5,907 nucleotides of DNA. Origin: a virus (lineage: Duplodnaviria > Heunggongvirae > Uroviricota > Caudoviricetes). Position 1 is the first letter of the stretch. The number at the start of each line of letters is the position of its first letter. The notes under the pieces were generated by a model. The model had not been told where the DNA came from, did not search any database, and saw only the letters and a list, made by a program, of their open reading frames with translations. Positions 1 to 5,907 of this stretch are shown one piece after another. The DNA lies in the IMG/VR virus record IMGVR_UViG_2681813320_000008, positions 1-5,907 of that record; one strand, written 5' to 3'. Position numbers and translations under genes: made by a program.

Positions 1-111
1 GTGCTTTTGCCGTTACGCACCACCCCGTCAGTAGCTGAACAGGAGGGACAGCTGATAGAAACAGAAGCCACTGGAGCACCTCAAAAACACCATCATACAC
101 TAAATCAGTAA
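1..111 (+). CDS. 3-prime end of an upstream ORF running off the window edge; function unknown (possibly the hydrophilic C-terminal tail of a holin or late-region protein)
   Basis: Frame 1 is open from base 1 to TAA at 109-111 (VLLPLRTTPSVAEQEGQLIETEATGAPQKHHHTLNQ). Only 36 codons are visible, which has a substantial chance of being open at random. No family motif recognised. Confidence 0.2.
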   Translation: MLLPLRTTPSVAEQEGQLIETEATGAPQKHHHTLNQ

Positions 112-210
112 GTTGGCAGCATCACCGGCGACGGTAAGGGTATTCACGTCTTCCCGAAGCCTGGAAATGCTGTCGAGCAACTCCTGTAGAGAAATGGTGT
201 TATTGTCCAT
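100..210 (-). CDS. Hypothetical 36-aa protein (MDNNTISLQELLDSISRLREDVNTLTVAGDAANLLI), absent from the supplied ORF track
   Basis: ATG at 210-208 preceded by a Shine-Dalgarno-like TGAGGA with a 6-nt spacer (minus-strand reading of 225-211: TCATGAGGATTATTT); stop TAG at 102-100. Hydrophilic, helix-prone sequence. Short and unconfirmed; overlaps the partial + ORF convergently by 12 bp. Confidence 0.3.
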   Translation of the reverse strand: MDNNTISLQELLDSISRLREDVNTLTVAGDAANLLI

Positions 211-315
211 AAATAATCCTCATGATTGTATTGACCTGTTAGCAGCCTGAGGCAACAGGCTGGAACTGATAAACATATCCAGGGCTCAGAAACCGATAAA
301 TCCTGATAAATATCC

Positions 316-849
316 ATGAACGCAAAAATCAGATACGGCCTGTCGGCTGCCGTTCTGGCGCTGATTGCCGCTGGTGCGCCTGCGCCTGACATTCTCGACC
401 AGTTTCTGGATGAAAAGGAAGGCAATCACACCACGGCATACCGTGATGGTGCAGGTATCTGGACCATCTGCCGTGGTGCCATCATGGTGGATGGCAAACC
501 TGTCGTTCCGGGCATGAAGTTGTCGAAGGAAAAATGCGACCGGGTTAACGCCATTGAGCGTGATAAGGCGCTGGCATGGGTGGAGAAAAACATCAGAGTG
601 CCATTGAGTGAACCCCAGAAAGCGGGGATCGCGTCATTCTGTCCGTACAACATTGGCCCCGGTAAGTGTTTTCCGTCGACGTTTTATAAACGAATTAATG
701 CAGGTGATCGCAGGGGAGCGTGTGAGGCGATTCGCTGGTGGATTAAGGACGGTGGCAGGGACTGCCGTATTCGCTCAAATAACTGTTACGGTCAGGTATC
801 CCGTCGTGACCAGGAGAGCGCGCTGGCGTGCTGGGGAATCGACAGATAA
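316..849 (+). CDS. Phage endolysin, T4-lysozyme-like (GH24) with N-terminal signal-anchor-release (SAR) domain
   Basis: 177-aa ORF. N-terminus MNAKIRYGLSAAVLALIAAGAPAP has basic residues followed by a weakly hydrophobic Gly/Ala/Ser-rich segment, as in SAR endolysins. Catalytic triad spacing E-x8-D-x5-T (EGNHTTAYRDGAGIWT) matches T4 lysozyme E11/D20/T26. Overall pattern (GIWTICRG, KRINAGD, C-terminal CWG) resembles P21 R / P22 gp19-type lysozymes as recalled. No Shine-Dalgarno visible upstream of the ATG. Confidence 0.9.
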   Translation: MNAKIRYGLSAAVLALIAAGAPAPDILDQFLDEKEGNHTTAYRDGAGIWTICRGAIMVDGKPVVPGMKLSKEKCDRVNAIERDKALAWVEKNIRVPLSEPQKAGIASFCPYNIGPGKCFPSTFYKRINAGDRRGACEAIRWWIKDGGRDCRIRSNNCYGQVSRRDQESALACWGIDR

Positions 850-939
850 GCAGAATATTTTGCTAATAAATGACGTTGGCCAAGGCGGACGGATAACACG
901 AAATCCTGCGAACTGGCAAAATGTAAGTGAATAAAAGTA

Positions 940-977
940 AAAACCCCGTTTGTTGGCAGCAAGCGGGGTTTTGTTTT
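940..977 (+). terminator. Rho-independent terminator-like stem-loop, potentially bidirectional
   Basis: AAAACCCCG (940-948) pairs with CGGGGTTTT (964-972), extendable by inner T.G/T-A/T-A pairs to about 12 bp with a 9-nt loop; followed by a T-run (TTTTGTTTTT through 978) and preceded by an A-run, so the reverse strand gives the same structure. Lies about 90 bp downstream of the endolysin stop. Confidence 0.55.
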
Positions 978-1043
978 TATGGCAGTAAGCTATGGGAGGC
1001 TGCCTTGATTGATTTTAGCAAACTGATTAGGGAGTTGCGACTC

Positions 1044-1139
1044 ATGATTAGTCAATTACCAAACTGGAAATTTTTGCTGGTCTGGAGCATCCCTTTTTTA
1101 TGGGTAGTATCCCAGTTAATTGTGGCAATTAAGGGGTAG
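1044..1139 (+). CDS. Hypothetical 31-aa single-pass membrane peptide (MISQLPNWKFLLVWSIPFLWVVSQLIVAIKG)
   Basis: ATG at 1044 preceded by GGGAG (1030-1034, 9-nt spacer); Trp/Phe/Leu-rich hydrophobic core; stop TAG at 1137-1139 lies 2 nt before the next ORF start. The longer track ORF from 927 crosses the terminator hairpin and has no RBS, so only this C-terminal part is retained. Confidence 0.3.
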   Translation: MISQLPNWKFLLVWSIPFLWVVSQLIVAIKG

Positions 1140-1141
1140 CT

Positions 1142-1273
1142 ATGTCAGACAAACTCATAACGCCGGCAAAGGTCCTGTGTGTGATTGTCGGTATTTCATT
1201 TTCACTAATGCTGGTTGCTCTTTTTCTGTCCCTCGCCTGGGTGATGTTGTCTTCGTCGGGGCTGCTGGGGTGA
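1142..1273 (+). CDS. Hypothetical 43-aa single-pass membrane peptide (MSDKLITPAKVLCVIVGISFSLMLVALFLSLAWVMLSSSGLLG)
   Basis: ATG at 1142 preceded by a strong Shine-Dalgarno AAGGGG (1131-1136, 5-nt spacer); about 25-residue hydrophobic stretch; stop TGA at 1271-1273 overlaps the GTG start of the next ORF (GTGA). Not in the ORF track, probably due to a length cutoff. The overlapping track frame (1120-1392, TTG start) is Cys-rich and unprotein-like over this stretch. Confidence 0.5.
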   Translation: MSDKLITPAKVLCVIVGISFSLMLVALFLSLAWVMLSSSGLLG

Positions 1274-1392
1274 CAGTGACTGATGACATCAGCAGAGCGC
1301 TGGCTTTTGCTATTAAGTGGGTGGCTGTTGGTATTGCTGTGTCTCCGATGCTGTATGGGCTGGCAAAACTGGTCATTGCGCTGAAATCGTGA
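1270..1392 (+). CDS. Hypothetical 38-40-aa membrane peptide (...TDDISRALAFAIKWVAVGIAVSPMLYGLAKLVIALKS); paralog of the next ORF
   Basis: GTG start at 1270 overlapping the previous stop (GTGA), or alternatively GTG 1276 with GGGG 5 nt upstream; hydrophobic core; stop TGA 1390-1392. Clear similarity to the peptide at 1404-1490 (RALAFAIKWVAVGIAV versus [16 protein letters not shown]) supports this reading frame. Confidence 0.45.
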   Translation: MTVTDDISRALAFAIKWVAVGIAVSPMLYGLAKLVIALKS

Positions 1393-1403
1393 ACTTTAAA
1401 AAG

Positions 1404-1490
1404 ATGAGTGCTGAACTTATTCGGGCAATGGCATTTGCCATTCGTATTGTGGCCATTGCTGTTCTGGTCTGGGCAATCCGTTGGTGGTGA
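1404..1490 (+). CDS. Hypothetical 28-aa membrane peptide ([28 protein letters not shown]); paralog of the previous ORF
   Basis: ATG 1404; stop TGA 1488-1490 lies 1 nt before the Rz ATG at 1492. Hydrophobic helix with C-terminal RWW. No clear Shine-Dalgarno (AAAAAG upstream), so translation may rely on coupling. Confidence 0.35.
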
Positions 1491-1491
1491 T

Positions 1492-1959
1492 ATGAACCGT
1501 GTTCTGTGTGTGGTGATTATTGTCCTGCTGGTAGCCTGTGGTGTGCTTAGTCTGGGGCTGAATCATTACCGCGATAACGCCATCACCTACAAAGCGCAGC
1601 GCGATAAAAAAGTCAGTGAGCTGAAACTGGCGAACGCGACAATTACTGATATGCAGATACGCCAGCGTGATGTCGCTGAACTTGATGCCAGATACTCGAG
1701 GGAATTAGCCGATGCGAGAGCTGAAAATGAAACTCTGCGTGCTGATGTTGCCGCTGGTCGTAAGCGCCTGCGGATCAACGCCACCTGCTCCGGTACCGTG
1801 CGTGAAGCCACCGGCACCTCCGGCGTGGATAATGCAACCGGCCCCCGACTGGCAGACACCGCTGAACGGGATTATTTCATCCTCAGAGAACGGTTGATGA
1901 CAATGCAGAAGCAGCTGGAAGGGGCACAGGACTATATCCGCACTCAGTGCCTGAACTAA
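1492..1959 (+). CDS. Rz: i-spanin (inner-membrane spanin subunit), lambda Rz-like
   Basis: 155-aa product [39 protein letters not shown]... with N-terminal transmembrane domain and coiled-coil periplasmic region; near-colinear with lambda Rz as recalled ([34 protein letters not shown]). Start trimmed from the track's GTG 1408 to ATG 1492 by that alignment. Confidence 0.9.
1712..1897 (+). CDS. Rz1: o-spanin (outer-membrane lipoprotein spanin subunit), lambda Rz1-like, embedded in the +1 frame of Rz
   Basis: 61-aa ORF wholly inside Rz in another frame. Lipoprotein signal with lipobox LVVSAC, proline-rich mature region [32 protein letters not shown] closely matching lambda Rz1 as recalled ([32 protein letters not shown]). 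The start could instead be the internal ATG at 1727. Confidence 0.85.
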
Positions 1960-2256
1960 GTTTTGCTGATGCGCCGTATCGTCGCTGTATTCCCTCATTA
2001 ACAGAGACCGCAGCCCGACAGGGAGACTCCTCTGCGCGAGTGTGCGGGGATAATCAAAAACGATACACACCGGGGTTTACCGCGTTAACGGAGCGCGGCG
2101 TTGTCCCCTCATAGTCGCCAGTCCGGTGCGATGGTGGAAGAAACAGGACGATGTGTTACCTCGCAAGCCCTGTTATGTCATGTGTCTGATTTGTGATTTA
2201 AGTCGGATAATTGTCGTTGCCATTAAGCAGAGGATTGATGACCGACAGGGCGGCAT

Positions 2257-2279
2257 TGTTAGAATAAGACTTATTCTAA
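2257..2279 (+). promoter_or_regulatory. Candidate extended -10 promoter (TGTTAGAAT, 2257-2265) overlapped by a 21-bp perfect palindrome (TTAGAATAAG-A-CTTATTCTAA, 2259-2279), a putative operator for the downstream lipoprotein gene
   Basis: Perfect 10-bp arms with a 1-nt spacer, directly seen; TGnTAGAAT matches the extended -10 consensus TGnTATAAT at 8 of 9 positions; located 19-40 bp upstream of the lipoprotein ATG at 2298, with a possible -35 TTGATG at 2235-2240. Confidence 0.35.
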
Positions 2280-2297
2280 TCTGTGCGGGGAATGAAA

Positions 2298-2624
2298 ATG
2301 AAAAGAAATCTTCCGTTAATTATTTTGTTGTCTTCTCTGGTTATGGGCTGTACGCAACATAAAACAGATATGCCCCGACAGTTGGTTAAGGCATTACCAC
2401 AATATCCGGCCTATGCAGCGGCAAATTATATAAAGGGACGGGTTGATGTGAGGTTTGATATTGGTGCTGATGGTACTGTCACCCGAATTGAGTTTATTCG
2501 TTCAGAGCCGCACCATCTGTTTGATGAGCAGGTTGTAAAGGCGATGGCAAAATGGCGATTTGAGAAGGACAGGCCGTGTAAAGGCGTGAAGAAAACGTTT
2601 ATCTTTAGTCCTTCTGCGCACTGA
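2298..2624 (+). CDS. Lipoprotein with TonB C-terminal-like domain (phage moron candidate)
   Basis: 108-aa product MKRNLPLIILLSSLVMGC... with basic n-region, hydrophobic core and lipobox-like LVMGC. Mature part carries the TonB C-terminal pattern PQYPAYAAANYIKGRVDVRFDIGADGTVTRIEFIRSEPHHLFDEQVVKAMAKWRFEKD...KKTFIF (YP..A...G.V.V.F.I..DG.V......S...LFD..V..A...W.F). It lacks the proline-rich spacer and N-terminal membrane anchor of true TonB. Start chosen at ATG 2298 (GGGG 7 nt upstream) rather than the track's GTG 2283. Confidence 0.75.
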   Translation: MKRNLPLIILLSSLVMGCTQHKTDMPRQLVKALPQYPAYAAANYIKGRVDVRFDIGADGTVTRIEFIRSEPHHLFDEQVVKAMAKWRFEKDRPCKGVKKTFIFSPSAH

Positions 2625-2755
2625 TTATTTCATCAGAAATTAATTATCACTCTGTTGTTATTCTGTACATCCCGGCAGGGTAAGTATTGTTCCGTCGGAT
2701 ATGAAGATGAAATATTGTTGGAGGACAGTGGGTACCTGCTCCTGTAACCGAACGT

Positions 2756-2956
2756 TCATTTCTCGTTATTTGTCATGCTGGCCGGGCGCAGATGCGTTGC
2801 ATCTGTTGCCAGCCTTCTCCTGCAGGCTTCAATAACCCACGCTGAAAAGTTACCGGACCCTTTATGCTCAAGGGCGATGTTGATCTGTTCAATCATGTGA
2901 TTGGGGAAACGGATATTGCGGGTTGTGGTTCTGCGGGTACGGTTTTTCGATGACAT
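2756..2956 (-). CDS. Small ribbon-helix-helix DNA-binding protein, YlcI/YnfO-like (DUF3950 family) as recalled from E. coli cryptic prophages
   Basis: 66-aa product MSSKNRTRRTTTRNIRFPNHMIEQINIALEHKGSGNFSAWVIEACRRRLATDATHLRPASMTNNEK: basic N-terminus, a beta-strand-like NIRFP followed by two helices (an Arc/CopG-like arrangement). Start set at ATG 2956 with a strong RBS (AAGGA, 7-nt spacer) instead of the track's upstream ATG 3016, which would overlap the HNH gene start. Confidence 0.65.
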   Translation of the reverse strand: MSSKNRTRRTTTRNIRFPNHMIEQINIALEHKGSGNFSAWVIEACRRRLATDATHLRPASMTNNEK

Positions 2957-2997
2957 ATTTATTTCCTTTACTGATTGCCATATGACGGGGATTTTAC

Positions 2998-3363
2998 ATG
3001 GCTGAGCTTCGTACACTCCAGAGCAGAATCAAAACACTGAATACCCGACGGGTGAATATTCTGAAGGGTGAACAGCGTCGTGTCAGTGGCAGTGCACGTG
3101 TTTCCCTCAAGCGTCATATCTGGCTCAGGGATGCCGGGCAGTGCTGTCTCTGTGGTCGTGTGGTTGACCTCTGTGACAGTGAACTCGATCACCGAATTGC
3201 ACTTCAGTTCGGTGGTGGTAATGAGGAGACGAATCTCTGGACGCTCTGTACCGAATGCCATCGACAAAAGTCTGCTCGTGAAGCGGCGAGTGATATGCCG
3301 GACCCGACGCTGCCGGAGGTGTCCGGAGGTAGTGGCAGAGAGGACGACATCATCGGACTGTAA
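2998..3363 (+). CDS. HNH endonuclease, phage packaging-associated
   Basis: 121-aa product with two CxxC pairs (CCLCG, CTEC) and the HNH core DHRIALQFGGGNEETNLWTLCTECH; sits immediately upstream of the putative cos region and terminase genes, the arrangement known for HK97-type cos phages (gp74). RBS ACGGGGA 7 nt upstream of the ATG. Confidence 0.85.
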   Translation: MAELRTLQSRIKTLNTRRVNILKGEQRRVSGSARVSLKRHIWLRDAGQCCLCGRVVDLCDSELDHRIALQFGGGNEETNLWTLCTECHRQKSAREAASDMPDPTLPEVSGGSGREDDIIGL

Positions 3364-3653
3364 CCCGACCCCGGGGGGGTATCATCCGGCGTAAAAAACG
3401 ATCGCTTTGGACACCGCGCCCCCTCTCACGCAGAGAAAAAATTCCCGTTTCAGGGCAGTTAACATGTTAACTGGCTGCCCGGGCATTTTTGCGGTTTTTA
3501 TCTTTATTATTCAGTTTGTTGTGCGGAAAAAATGTTAACAGGCTTTTTCAGCAAATGTTAACCAGGCAGCAGTTAACATTTGCGGCATGAGACGCCGGGA
3601 AAAATGGGCTGAACCATACCCGGCTGAGTGCGTTCTGGACCCGGGAGGAGGCT
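3364..3653. other. Putative cos / packaging-initiation region (non-coding, between HNH endonuclease and terminase small subunit)
   Basis: 290-bp non-coding gap in the position where cos lies in HK97-like and lambda-like genomes; contains a CCCCGGGGGGG tract (3369-3379), A/T-tract-rich, probably bent DNA (3485-3530) and clustered GTTAAC-containing repeats. The exact cosN nick sites cannot be assigned from sequence alone. Confidence 0.4.
3456..3581. repeat. Cluster of five GTTAACAT/ATGTTAAC motifs: an 18-bp perfect palindrome (3456-3473), a solitary copy (3532-3539) and an inverted repeat with 10-bp arms and a 9-bp spacer (3553-3581)
   Basis: Directly seen: CAGTTAACATGTTAACTG (3456-3473) is self-complementary; AAATGTTAAC (3553-3562) and GTTAACATTT (3572-3581) are reverse complements; ATGTTAAC also occurs at 3532-3539. 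Five copies of an 8-mer in 126 bp is far above chance. Function (terminase small-subunit sites, or operator for the RHH protein) is inferred. Confidence 0.6.
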
Positions 3654-4217
3654 GTGCTGACAACGCAAAAACGAAAATTTGCGCTGGCGCTCATGTCCGG
3701 GAAAAACAAAACAGCGTCAGCCATTGCCGCCGGTTATTCGGCGAAGACCGCCAGGGTTAAAGGCTCGCAGCTGGCAAAAGATCCTGAGGTGCTTGCGTTT
3801 ATAGCCCGTAAACAATGCGAGACGGTGGAGGTGGATGAGGTTCCTGTTTACCGGCAGAAAAAATCAGAGCAGGAGGATAAACCCCGTCGCCGTGAGGCGG
3901 CTGCAATACCACAGCCGGACGAAAACAATCCGGAGATGCCACCGTCCGCGGTGATGTCTCCTGGTATTGAATATATGGAGGATGGTCTTCCCGATCCGGT
4001 GAAAGCCATGGGGCGGATCCTGGTGGAAAACCTCTGCATTGATCCGAAACTGGCACTGGATGCGGCCTGGCGTCTGGCGCAGTTCACGCACCATAAAAAA
4101 GGGGATACCGGGAAAAAATCGGCAAAAGGTGATGCCGCGAAAAAAGCGGCTAACCGTTTTGCGGTGCCACCGCCCCCCCGACTGGTGGTGAATAACGATA
4201 ATGAGGGCAACGGATGA
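3654..4217 (+). CDS. terS: Terminase small subunit (Terminase_2-like, N-terminal helix-turn-helix)
   Basis: 187-aa product; N-terminal KRKFALALMSGKNKTASAIAAGYSAKTARVKGSQLAKDPEV fits the TerS HTH pattern (AGYS.KTA); charged low-complexity C-terminus; stop overlaps the terminase large subunit start (ATGA at 4214-4217). GTG start at 3654 with GGAGG 5 nt upstream. Confidence 0.8.
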   Translation: MLTTQKRKFALALMSGKNKTASAIAAGYSAKTARVKGSQLAKDPEVLAFIARKQCETVEVDEVPVYRQKKSEQEDKPRRREAAAIPQPDENNPEMPPSAVMSPGIEYMEDGLPDPVKAMGRILVENLCIDPKLALDAAWRLAQFTHHKKGDTGKKSAKGDAAKKAANRFAVPPPPRLVVNNDNEGNG

Positions 4218-5875
4218 TACCTGTATGGAGCACAGCCTGCCCGGACTGGGCAGAGCGCCTGAAAAAGGGGCTGTCGATTATTCCGGATCCGATTTATCCG
4301 GACGAGGCCGCACATGCCCTGGCGATTTTTAAACAACTGCGGATTGTGGATGCACCTGGTAGCCCTACGTTCGGGGAGTCCTGTGCACCGTGGGTGTTTG
4401 ACCTGGTGGCGGCCCTGTTTGGCTCCTACGATGCGCAGACCGGTGTACGCCATATCAAGGAAGTTTTTATCCTTATCCCCAAGAAAAACTCGAAGTCCAC
4501 GCTGGCCGCGGGGATCATGATGACTGCACTGTTACTGAACTGGCGGCAGGCGGCGGGTTACACGATTCTGGCCCCGACTGTGGAGGTGGCGGCCAACGCC
4601 TTCAACCCTGCCCGGGATATGGTACGACGTGACGATGATCTGGATGACCTCTGCCAGGTACAGACCCATATCCGGACCATCACCCACCGAGTGACGGACA
4701 CCACCCTGAAGGTGGTGGCAGCCGATCCGAATACGGTGTCCGGTATCAAGTCCGTGGGTACGCTGATTGATGAGTTGTGGCTGTTTGGCAAGCAGTGCAA
4801 GGCGGAGGACATGTTACGTGAAGCCATAGGCGGCCTTGCCTCCCGCCCGGAAGGGTTTGTGGTGTATACGACCACCCAGTCGAATGAACCGCCCGCCGGG
4901 GTGTTCAGACAGAAACTGCAGTACGCCCGGGATGTGCGCGACGGCAAAATTCATGATCCGCACTTTCTGCCGGTGATATTTGAACACCCTCCTGAAATGG
5001 TGGAAAGCGGGGCTAACCTGCTGATGGAAAACCTCGCCATGGTCAATCCGAATCTCGGCTATTCAGTGGATGAGGCCTTTCTGTACCGGGAGTACCGTAA
5101 AGCCCGGGAAGCCGGTGAAGAGACATTCCGGGGGTTCATGTCAAAACACGCCAATGTGGAAATTGGTCTTGCCCTGCGCTCTGACCGCTGGGCGGGGGCT
5201 GATTTCTGGGAAGAGCAGGGCCGTTGTATCAGCCTGGACGATATCCTGCGTCGTGCTGATGTGGTGACGGTGGGGATTGACGGCGGAGGGCTGGATGATC
5301 TGCTGGGGATGTATGTGACTGGGCGTGACCGGGAGACCCGCGAATGGCTGGGCTGGGGCCATGCCTGGGCGCATGAAACCGCGGTGGTCCGACGGAAGAG
5401 CGAGGCGTCCCGGTTTCAGGATCTTGTTGCCTGTGGAGATATGACCATTGTCCGGCGTGTCGGGGATGACACGGCGGAAGTGGCGGAATATGTGCGTCGC
5501 ATTCATGAGGCTGAGTTACTGGACCATATCGGTATTGACCCGTCAGGGGTGGGGCAGATTCTGGATTCACTGGCGGAAGCCGGGATCCCCGACGGAATTG
5601 TGGTGGGGATAAGCCAGGGCTGGAAACTGGGCGGGGCCATTAAAACCACCGAGCGCAAACTGGCTGAAGGGGTGCTGGTGCATGGTGACCAGCCCCTGAT
5701 GGCCTGGTGTGTCGGCAATGCCCGGGTGGAGCCTAAAGGTAACGCCATTCTTATCACCAAACAGGCCAGTGGACGGGGAAAAATTGACCCGCTGATGGCG
5801 CTGTTCAATGCGGTCTCCCTGATGTCCCTTAACCCGGAACCGAAAAAGAAAGAATATGCGGTTTTTTTCATATAA
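4214..5875 (+). CDS. terL: Terminase large subunit (Terminase_1 / HK97-like ATPase-nuclease)
   Basis: 553-aa product; Walker A-like ILIPKKNSKST; Walker B-like hydrophobic stretch ending LIDE; C-terminal nuclease-domain pattern (VTVGIDGGGLDDL ... KIDPLMALFNAVSLMS) typical of the family; translationally coupled to terS. Confidence 0.92.
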   Translation: MIPVWSTACPDWAERLKKGLSIIPDPIYPDEAAHALAIFKQLRIVDAPGSPTFGESCAPWVFDLVAALFGSYDAQTGVRHIKEVFILIPKKNSKSTLAAGIMMTALLLNWRQAAGYTILAPTVEVAANAFNPARDMVRRDDDLDDLCQVQTHIRTITHRVTDTTLKVVAADPNTVSGIKSVGTLIDELWLFGKQCKAEDMLREAIGGLASRPEGFVVYTTTQSNEPPAGVFRQKLQYARDVRDGKIHDPHFLPVIFEHPPEMVESGANLLMENLAMVNPNLGYSVDEAFLYREYRKAREAGEETFRGFMSKHANVEIGLALRSDRWAGADFWEEQGRCISLDDILRRADVVTVGIDGGGLDDLLGMYVTGRDRETREWLGWGHAWAHETAVVRRKSEASRFQDLVACGDMTIVRRVGDDTAEVAEYVRRIHEAELLDHIGIDPSGVGQILDSLAEAGIPDGIVVGISQGWKLGGAIKTTERKLAEGVLVHGDQPLMAWCVGNARVEPKGNAILITKQASGRGKIDPLMALFNAVSLMSLNPEPKKKEYAVFFI

Positions 5876-5907
5876 CCCTGTTCACACTGTAACCATCACG
5901 AACCGCT

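Follow-up and report, generated by a model that had tools for sequence, protein, structure and literature searches.

Two tail types of one single-helix membrane peptide family between the endolysin and spanin genes of an Escherichia coli lambdoid prophage

Introduction

The lysis of Gram-negative hosts by phages is usually taught as a matter of holin, endolysin and spanin. The DNA considered here, positions 1 to 5,907 of IMG/VR virus record IMGVR_UViG_2681813320_000008 (5,907 nucleotides (nt); hereafter the window), carries four mini open reading frames (ORFs), o1 to o4, between the endolysin gene R and the spanin gene Rz. The last two, o3 and o4, were set down in a preliminary description as diverged tandem paralogues encoding small membrane peptides. 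What kind of peptides are these, are they maintained as proteins, how did their genes come to stand side by side, and what might they do in a lysis cassette?

We find that o3 and o4 represent two tail types, the long A and the short B respectively, of one family of single-helix membrane peptides of 28-62 residues. We regard the identity, homology and coding status of the two, together with their mosaic origin, as close to secure. The complete explanation, which adds to the family identity an accessory role in lysis, we consider evenly poised.

Relationship of the two peptides

The two ORFs are:

1270-1392, + strand: mini-ORF o3, type A without the usual head, 40 residues; its GTG at 1270 overlaps the o2 stop codon (GTGA)
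1404-1490, + strand: mini-ORF o4, type B with a short head, 28 residues; stop codon 1 nt before the Rz ATG

Their coordinates, peptides and quoted DNA strings were reproduced exactly: o3 runs from the GTG at 1270 to the TGA at 1390-1392, with product VTVTDDISRALAFAIKWVAVGIAVSPMLYGLAKLVIALKS, and o4 from the ATG at 1404 to the TGA at 1488-1490, with a 28-residue product. The common core noticed in the preliminary description, RA[LM]AFAI[KR]xVA, was recovered by BLOSUM62 local alignment of DISRALAFAIKWVAVGIAV with a 19-residue segment of o4, which scores 47. Composition-preserving shuffles score 21.5 +/- 4.3 and reached 47 in 1/5000 and 0/2000 trials (z ~6), so that the resemblance clearly exceeds that of shuffled hydrophobic sequences. 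Control pairs among o1, o2, the Rz transmembrane domain (TMD), the signal-arrest-release (SAR) segment of the endolysin and other transmembrane (TM) segments of the window score 16-34. The underlying DNA is similar too, as had been said: the 45-nt strings at 1297-1341 and 1425-1469 are identical at 27/45 positions, a level reached by 22/20000 codon shuffles. Identities by codon position across the 19-codon core are 11/14/7, third positions thus being the most diverged. The peptide of o1 bears a weak likeness to the type A tail of o3 at the protein level (15/2000 shuffles) that is not significant at the DNA level (1104/20000).

A family of small membrane peptides

Both peptides match the same three PHROG profiles, phrog_4493, phrog_3246 and phrog_1115, none with an assigned function. 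The E values for o3 are 6.4e-25, 2.4e-20 and 5e-17; o4 matches phrog_4493 and phrog_3246 at 3.8e-6 and 9.2e-5 and phrog_1115 weakly (0.053). The split between these profiles in part reflects over-long ORF calls combined with the two tail types. A family hidden Markov model (HMM), searched against 1.84 billion protein representatives at E <= 1e-3, retrieved only 28 clusters, which points to a narrow enterobacterial family. These clusters include both tail types and intermediates in length, namely P0159 (49 residues, of A-like length with an RWW end), P0167 and P0176 (42 residues), and the exact o4 variant (P0160) was recovered at 8e-8. In the HMM alignment type B corresponds to type A minus about 11 internal residues. 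Natural chimeras link the types directly: P0078 joins an o3-type (A) head to an o4-type (B) tail, and P0048 an o4-like head, MNAELLRAA, to a type A tail. Word-based searches gave the same picture of two populations with common heads, a common core RAxAFAI[K/R] and differing tails.

Each family member consists of a head (MKNGLELKAPVTDD or a shorter variant), a core and a tail, preceded in some by a basic N-terminal extension, MRKYKRILLRLT. The core, A-x-AFAI-[K/R]-x-[VIL]-A, lies in a hydrophobic helix; it reads RALAFAIKWVA in o3, and o4 also fits. The invariant alignment columns are A, F, A, I, V, A and V, an invariantly basic residue (Lys or Arg) is embedded inside the hydrophobic helix, and small residues recur along it. 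Type A tails end in ...KWVAVGIAVSPMLYGLAKLVIALKS, as in o3, and belong mostly to 48- and 60-residue forms starting MKNGLELKAPVTDDIS. Type B tails, about 11 residues shorter, end in ...AIRWW, as in o4; a 37-residue example, MKGIEVETPASLDLIRAAAFAI..., is present on at least 999 contigs. Neither o3 nor o4 has the full-length head (MKNGLELKAP..., with the basic extension or lacking it); each is a variant whose head is truncated or short. Forms with a short head are widespread in their own right, and in other cassettes both types occur as such forms with a conserved ATG.

In the AlphaFold2 prediction for the 60-residue form a short helix at the N-terminus is followed by a break at KAP, after which residues 23-59 make up a single continuous helix with predicted local distance difference test (pLDDT) values of 87-94. 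By hydrophobicity sums o2 is strongly TM-like, o4 marginal, and o3 weakly hydrophobic and comparable to the endolysin SAR segment.

Exact family sequences occur on about 1000 or more contigs, where they are named only 'hypothetical', 'membrane protein' or 'transmembrane protein'. In RefSeq o2, o3 and o4 already have entries as hypothetical proteins, those of o3 and o4 being WP_042004856 and WP_032140280; these entries, like the three PHROGs of which o3 and o4 are members, carry no function. Scans of the four peptides, the long forms and the region against Pfam, NCBIfam, PADLOC and Rfam gave no matches, and two scans of one-genome-per-species contigs gave no confirmed relative. A survey of Shiga toxin (Stx) phage lysis cassettes (PMC8136144) makes no mention of these ORFs, and no description of the A/B relationship or of the mosaic arrays was found anywhere. 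The sequences were thus already present in databases, as hypothetical proteins and function-less PHROGs. The present analysis brings the two tail types together in one family, adds evidence that the genes are coding and under selection, and describes their mosaic history and a slot that is conserved across cassettes of several kinds.

Coding status and selection

Selection was assessed in two sets of copies. The first comprises DNA alleles of type A (29) and type B (6), whose variable sites are distributed over the three codon positions as 11/3/23 and 6/1/9 respectively. Read in the annotated frame, type A has a ratio of nonsynonymous to synonymous polymorphism (pN/pS) of 0.21 and type B one of 0.25; the two remaining frames give 0.55-9.6. 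The second set was defined by blastn, intactness not being a criterion; it holds 188 full-length type A and 101 type B copies (289 in total) with 0 indels among them, and an internal stop in 0/188 of the type A copies. Here pN/pS is 0.23 in the N-terminal extension, 0.06 in the head and 0.11 in the core plus tail. Judged by these substitution patterns, o3 and o4 are both coding and their protein is under purifying selection across the family, which bears out the selection on the protein first suspected from the two sequences.

The 74 arrays of the window type also contain 0 indels; their polymorphisms are too few for a selection test, o3 and o4 having 2 synonymous changes each and the single nonsynonymous change lying in o4. 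In the same arrays o2 shows 6 nonsynonymous against 2 synonymous changes, clustered in its last 14 codons (window 1232-1259), numbers too small to interpret. This stretch is the part that the Prokaryotic Genome Annotation Pipeline (PGAP) also reads as an N-terminal extension of o3.

Two other sources of conservation were considered and rejected. RNA structure gives z values of -0.43 and -0.74 and no Rfam match. An alternative frame within o3, from an ATG at 1283 to 1384 on the + strand, would encode a 33-residue hydrophobic peptide, MTSAERWLLLLSGWLLVLLCLRCCMGWQNWSLR; the pN/pS of 0.55 or 9.6 in the non-annotated frames speaks against it, and its tail is seen only in frameshifted database proteins (P0056 and P0067).

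Origin of the tandem pair

Around o3 and o4 the window holds the following features:

1-126, - strand: end of an IS1 element, with matches of at least 99% in at least 5000 plasmids and an IS1B transposase annotation; terminal repeat at 104-126
316-849, + strand: endolysin R, a phage lysozyme with an N-terminal SAR-like hydrophobic segment (Pfam PF00959, 1.3e-23; phrog_7, endolysin; PGAP 'lysozyme')
940-982, + strand: terminator-like G+C hairpin with a 15-bp stem, then a T tract, directly 3' of R
1044-1139, + strand: mini-ORF o1, a 31-residue hydrophobic peptide matching phrog_6632; strong Shine-Dalgarno (SD) sequence, -8.4 kcal/mol
1142-1273, + strand: mini-ORF o2, a 43-residue peptide with a strongly hydrophobic TM segment (phrog_4906, 4.5e-21); strong SD
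1492-1959, + strand: Rz, inner-membrane spanin subunit (Pfam PF03245, 7.5e-50; phrog_13)
1727-1897, + strand: Rz1, outer-membrane lipoprotein spanin subunit embedded in the +1 frame of Rz (ORF 1712-1897; lipobox LVVSAC; proline-rich mature part)

Between o3 and o4 the proportion of synonymous differences (pS) is 0.64, corresponding figures being dS ~1.4 and, for nonsynonymous differences, pN 0.35. Each gene has closer relatives in other cassettes. The o3 gene (1276-1393) is 93% identical in nucleotides to type A of R-A-o2-Rz phages, where A stands upstream of o2. In O157-type R-B-Rz cassettes the only family gene, of type B, matches the o4 tail with the start of Rz (1431-1520) at 95.6% identity. 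Each type is found alone in many prophages, and the orders A-o2, o2-A-B, A-B, A-o2-A-B and A-p65-B all occur. The near-saturated pS, the closer kin elsewhere and the variable order indicate that the A/B split is old and that the window array was assembled by module shuffling.

The joints are consistent with such a history. At the o2-o3 joint the o2 stop is fused directly to ...CAGTGACTGATGAC of a type A gene, whose SD, ATG and head have been removed. The short head of o4 resembles heads that follow a 65-residue gene in GH108 cassettes. The joint of A stop and B start, TGAACTTTAAAAAGATG, is identical in R-A(long)-B-Rz cassettes and is kept in three different array contexts. On the evidence of sequence comparison, the A-B pair is an inherited unit that has been re-shuffled, and the o1-o2-o3-o4 array of the window is a recombination mosaic whose breakpoints fall at gene boundaries and within the conserved core GCnTTTGCnATT. 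The preliminary description had envisaged a local duplication followed by divergence. Of this the paralogy stands, and an ancient duplication, not within the window array, is probably the ultimate source; the near synonymous saturation and the closer copies of each type elsewhere speak against a recent duplication in place.

Translation and transcription signals

The o3 GTG that overlaps the o2 stop is preceded by a moderate, G-rich SD. PGAP and RefSeq start o3 (WP_042004856) at a CTG at 1237, 33 nt upstream inside o2; the GTG at 1270 or 1276 is likelier, because the stretch homologous to full-length type A genes does not start before 1276. The start of o4 follows the o3 stop by 11 nt. The o4-Rz joint reads TGAtATG, with the stop 1 nt from the Rz ATG, and the last o4 codons, TGG TGG TGA, carry the Rz SD. 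No sigma-70-like promoter was found between the terminator-like hairpin and o1, from which we infer that the mini-ORFs are read as part of the Q-antiterminated late transcript.

Cassette contexts

Arrangements were counted over non-redundant loci from IMG/VR, metagenomes and genomes:

R-A-o2-Rz: 108 loci
R-o1-o2-A-B-Rz (window type): 37 loci, plus fragments
GH108-A-o2-lipoprotein: 34 loci
R-ant-o1-o2-A-B-Rz: 5 loci
R-A-o2-A-B-Rz: 4 loci
R-A-B-Rz: 4 loci
R-B-Rz: 3 loci, heavily undersampled

Further arrangements are M15-B-lipoprotein and GH108-A-p65-B-lipoprotein, and in the Stx phage P27 only o2 is present, between ant and Rz. The family therefore stands 3' of three unrelated endolysin types (lysozyme, GH108 and M15), with different holins, and 5' of either Rz or a 51/60-residue lipoprotein. 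Among complete E. coli genomes a contiguous A-B pair is found in 609/5426 (11%) and at least one type in 1698/5426 (about a third). One copy is often missing in relatives, which speaks against the two being an obligatory pair.

The 51/60-residue lipoprotein occupies the Rz slot of GH108 or M15 cassettes (L251 3279-3461; L261 2149-2331; L260, the Stx2e phage phiP27, 2468-2656). It has a lipobox LVGC and matches phrog_7528, a family without assigned function, and no Rz/Rz1 was found within the flanks of these cassettes. The joint RWW-TGA-N-ATG-AAC-CG links the type B gene to the lipoprotein gene as it does to Rz. A strong terminator-like hairpin directly 3' of the endolysin gene is seen also in L247, L251 and L261, three otherwise different cassette types, always just 5' of the small-peptide genes.

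Two unusual members may be mentioned here. In the Salmonella chromosome near sopD/tmcA (L256-L258, 2501-3101) a prophage remnant consists of the intact 49-residue P0159 plus Rz only; it adjoins host genes and IS110 and is listed in 1647 collection blocks. The protein P0062, from a single 554-bp ENA contig, is a class II holin up to ...SPSQW fused to the type A tail VAVGVAVSPMLYGLAKLVIALKS, with a 7-nt microhomology at the join; it is either a real deletion joining holin and type A or an assembly artefact.

Possible function

What might such peptides do? By analogy with known modulators of lysis we tentatively suggest, at somewhat short of an even chance, that they are late-expressed inner-membrane helices with a dispensable, modulating role in a membrane step of lysis. 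They would be made late, together with Rz/Rz1. Translation of o3 would be likely to proceed by termination-reinitiation at the o2 stop, within a coupled chain ending in Rz; the chain does not account for initiation of o4 itself, which has no SD match. The peptides would insert in the inner membrane as single helices and make helix-helix contacts through the small-residue face and the buried Lys/Arg. As dispensable accessory lysis factors they would tune the timing or efficiency of the membrane step, being themselves neither holin, endolysin nor spanin. That lambda-type cassettes without these ORFs exist marks the peptides as accessory. A spanin identity for o3 or o4 was rejected, since at 28-40 residues they are almost all helix or TMD, with no periplasm-spanning domain or lipobox Cys, and the true Rz/Rz1 follow at 1492-1959.

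Membrane proteins encoded beside endolysin or spanin genes that modulate a membrane step of lysis are known: P2 LysA, P1 LydB and further regulators of antiholin type, and Mu releasin gp25. The lysA gene of P2 lies between the endolysin gene and an Rz-like gene, the same slot as the A/B genes. These proteins differ from the A/B peptides in being much larger, multi-TMD or DUF2730-bearing, and Pfam, NCBIfam and PHROG scans gave no sequence or profile likeness of A/B to any of them, nor DUF2730 or any other Pfam domain.

A nearer parallel in size is Lcc6 of the Shewanella phage LambdaSo, a 65-residue TM protein required for pinholin/SAR-endolysin lysis and acting at the level of the pinholin (bioRxiv 10.1101/2024.01.23.576932). 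Like the A/B peptides it is a very small, previously unannotated single-TMD phage protein that accompanies a pinholin/SAR-endolysin/Rz-Rz1 system, and it is non-toxic alone (bioRxiv 10.1101/2024.01.23.576932). It shows that accessory small-membrane lysis factors exist. In contrast to the A/B genes, however, the Lcc6 gene lies far from the lysis genes, and its product has a 43-residue cytoplasmic tail and is essential (bioRxiv 10.1101/2024.01.23.576932); the A/B peptides, compared with it by description, are encoded within the cassette and consist almost wholly of the membrane part, and they are clearly dispensable across relatives.

Several observations weigh against a role as lysis modulators. 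The orientation cues conflict, acidic short heads suggesting an N-out and the basic extension of the long forms an N-in topology. In the window the native start of o3 is gone and o4 has no SD match (+0.3 kcal/mol), and the conservation of the 3' end of o4 is partly explained by the overlapping Rz ribosome-binding site. Phage lambda, phage 21 and the K-12 prophage Qin are without the family, Qin having no small ORFs between rrrQ and rzpQ; given this absence, and with no tie to one type of holin, endolysin or spanin, the peptides cannot be a core component of lysis. A divergent 62-residue member, P0168 (L259 2501-2689; JGI metagenome 3300036783), lies outside any recognisable lysis cassette, with tail-fibre genes before it and a glycine-rich ORF of 331 residues after it. 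The slot is a recombination hot spot that also takes ant genes, so that history and not function could account for where the peptide genes lie. Searches of the literature, whether by phrase, accession or topic, turned up no paper about these ORFs.

A more specific form of the proposal, to which we give only a small chance, would make the A/B peptides a new class of inner-membrane cofactors for the outer-membrane step of lysis. Type B is always joined by ...RWW-TGA-N-ATG-AAC-CG to Rz/Rz1 or to the 51-residue lipoprotein, which suggests that the peptides would work with the downstream product. The peptides might hold spanins or lipoproteins inactive, or place them, until the wall has been degraded, as an 'anti-spanin' or spanin chaperone; alternatively, peptide and lipoprotein might together form an unrecognised spanin substitute.

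Alternative explanations

The alternative that survives best, although we consider it unlikely, is that the peptides are moron-type membrane proteins in a late-operon hot spot, with functions unrelated to lysis such as superinfection exclusion, a block to DNA entry or a change to host membrane proteins. Which modules are present, and in what order, differs strongly between loci, ant genes are inserted at the same place, and the family accompanies three endolysin types, with or without Rz. The member that adjoins tail-fibre genes, the terminator-like hairpin between R and the peptide genes, and the member retained with Rz in the Salmonella remnant would all suit such a role. Against these stand the lack of a promoter-like site 3' of the terminator, so that expression in the lysogen is not expected, the tight translational linkage to the Rz or lipoprotein gene, and the lack of a PADLOC match.

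It is improbable that the peptides are functionless, whether as hitch-hiking, head-truncated relics or as upstream ORFs that merely deliver ribosomes to Rz. The loss of the native SD and ATG of o3 at the o2 junction, the lack of an SD for o4 and the position of the Rz SD inside o4 would fit this, the diversity of window-type arrays is too low for a selection test, and in this window IS1 already cuts the operon. Relics or mere ribosome carriers would, however, hardly show the purifying selection at the amino acid level found family-wide, including in tails far from the downstream ribosome-binding site. Nor would they be expected to show 289 copies free of indels and 188 type A copies free of internal stops, an identical A-stop/B-start joint in three array contexts, or short-head forms of both types with a conserved ATG in other cassettes.

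The preliminary description likened the pair to holin/antiholin, in which one peptide makes or promotes membrane lesions and the other inhibits, and to toxin/immunity pairs; neither analogy fared well. The first, which we think very unlikely, draws on the occurrence of small paralogous TM peptides rich in small-xxx-small patterns within a lysis cassette, on the holin/type A chimeric ORF P0062, and on a weak resemblance of o3 KWVAVGIAVSPMLYGL to the second TMD (TMD2) of pinholins, QWAAIGVLGSLLFGL (score 36, reached by 109/20000 shuffles). The last of these, KWVAVGIAVS against QWAAIGVLGS, is a likeness to class II (S21-type) pinholins (PF04971), which also have small-residue helix faces and belong to the same cassette. 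Homology of type A to TMD2 was nevertheless rejected: the p value of ~0.005 does not survive correction for 20 tests, hhalign against the cassette's own holin gives a probability of 1.4%, and the resemblance is missing in divergent members. The A/B peptides do possess a TM helix, but they have no second TMD, their C-termini are only ...LKS and ...IRWW without a charged cytoplasmic domain, and they have no dual start. No holin model of Pfam or NCBIfam and no PHROG of the lysis category matches them. Dedicated holins are already present in the cassettes (PF04971 here, holin_8 plus holin_3_7 elsewhere), A or B often occurs alone, and the family is not specific to pinholins, being found also with a soluble GH108 endolysin and canonical holins.

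A toxin/immunity or type-I-toxin-like pair, that is a small hydrophobic toxin with a protective peptide or antisense RNA, has in our view scarcely any likelihood. In size and hydrophobicity the A/B peptides do resemble the type I toxins Hok, TisB, Ldr and Ibs, and their genes are paired. They differ in having neither a promoter of their own nor an antisense RNA or family match: no Rfam RNA and no PADLOC match was found, and RNA structure is not unusual (z -0.4 and -0.7). The genes lie in sense orientation, co-oriented inside a long phage late operon; single copies are common, so that a cognate gene is not always present, and with the same core in both members an asymmetry of toxin and antidote is not evident. 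Finally, a chance or compositional resemblance of two hydrophobic helices, conceivable for sequences so short, Ala/Ile/Val-rich and of low complexity, is effectively refuted by the shuffle tests, shared profile matches, intermediates, chimeras and homologous heads and upstream regions.

Neighbouring features

Past the IS1 end, the window (5.9 kb) represents the late region of a lambdoid prophage of E. coli; prophage homology begins at 127, right after the IS1 end. The element is inserted about 190 bp upstream of the lysozyme gene and cuts a 90-residue minus-strand ORF, of which codons 1-28 are left (127-210). In intact relatives a class II holin (PF04971) and ydfR stand 5' of R, and the insertion will therefore have split these from R, the mini-ORFs and Rz in the source genome, whose prophage lysis operon is probably crippled. 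Uninterrupted copies of the cassette are present, for example, in PCN033, NCCP15648 and the phage PhiR5_1. The IS1/prophage junction at 126/127 was found in 0 of the complete E. coli genomes in the collection.

Beyond Rz the window holds a TonB_C lipoprotein gene, ylcI/ynfO, HNH, and the small and large terminase subunits. The lipoprotein (2283-2624) has a TonB C-terminal domain (Pfam PF03544, 9.7e-15); phrog_1267 labels it 'Rz-like spanin', apparently a misannotation that has been passed on. To judge from a promoter-like site at 2238-2265, it may be a moron with expression of its own.

Implications

The carriers of the A/B peptides include O157-type and Stx-phage lysis cassettes. Mu releasin and Lcc6 of LambdaSo illustrate that small membrane proteins can be missing parts of the holin-endolysin-spanin scheme, and modular helices of 28-60 residues, maintained by selection between endolysin and spanin genes, are a concrete and cheap experimental target. 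The arrays also exemplify a lambdoid mosaicism in which genes of ~100 bp are shuffled through a 15-nt conserved core and gene-boundary joints. Should the peptides prove inert, annotation would still gain through correct starts and frames, as with the PGAP CTG start of o3 and the over-long PHROG calls.

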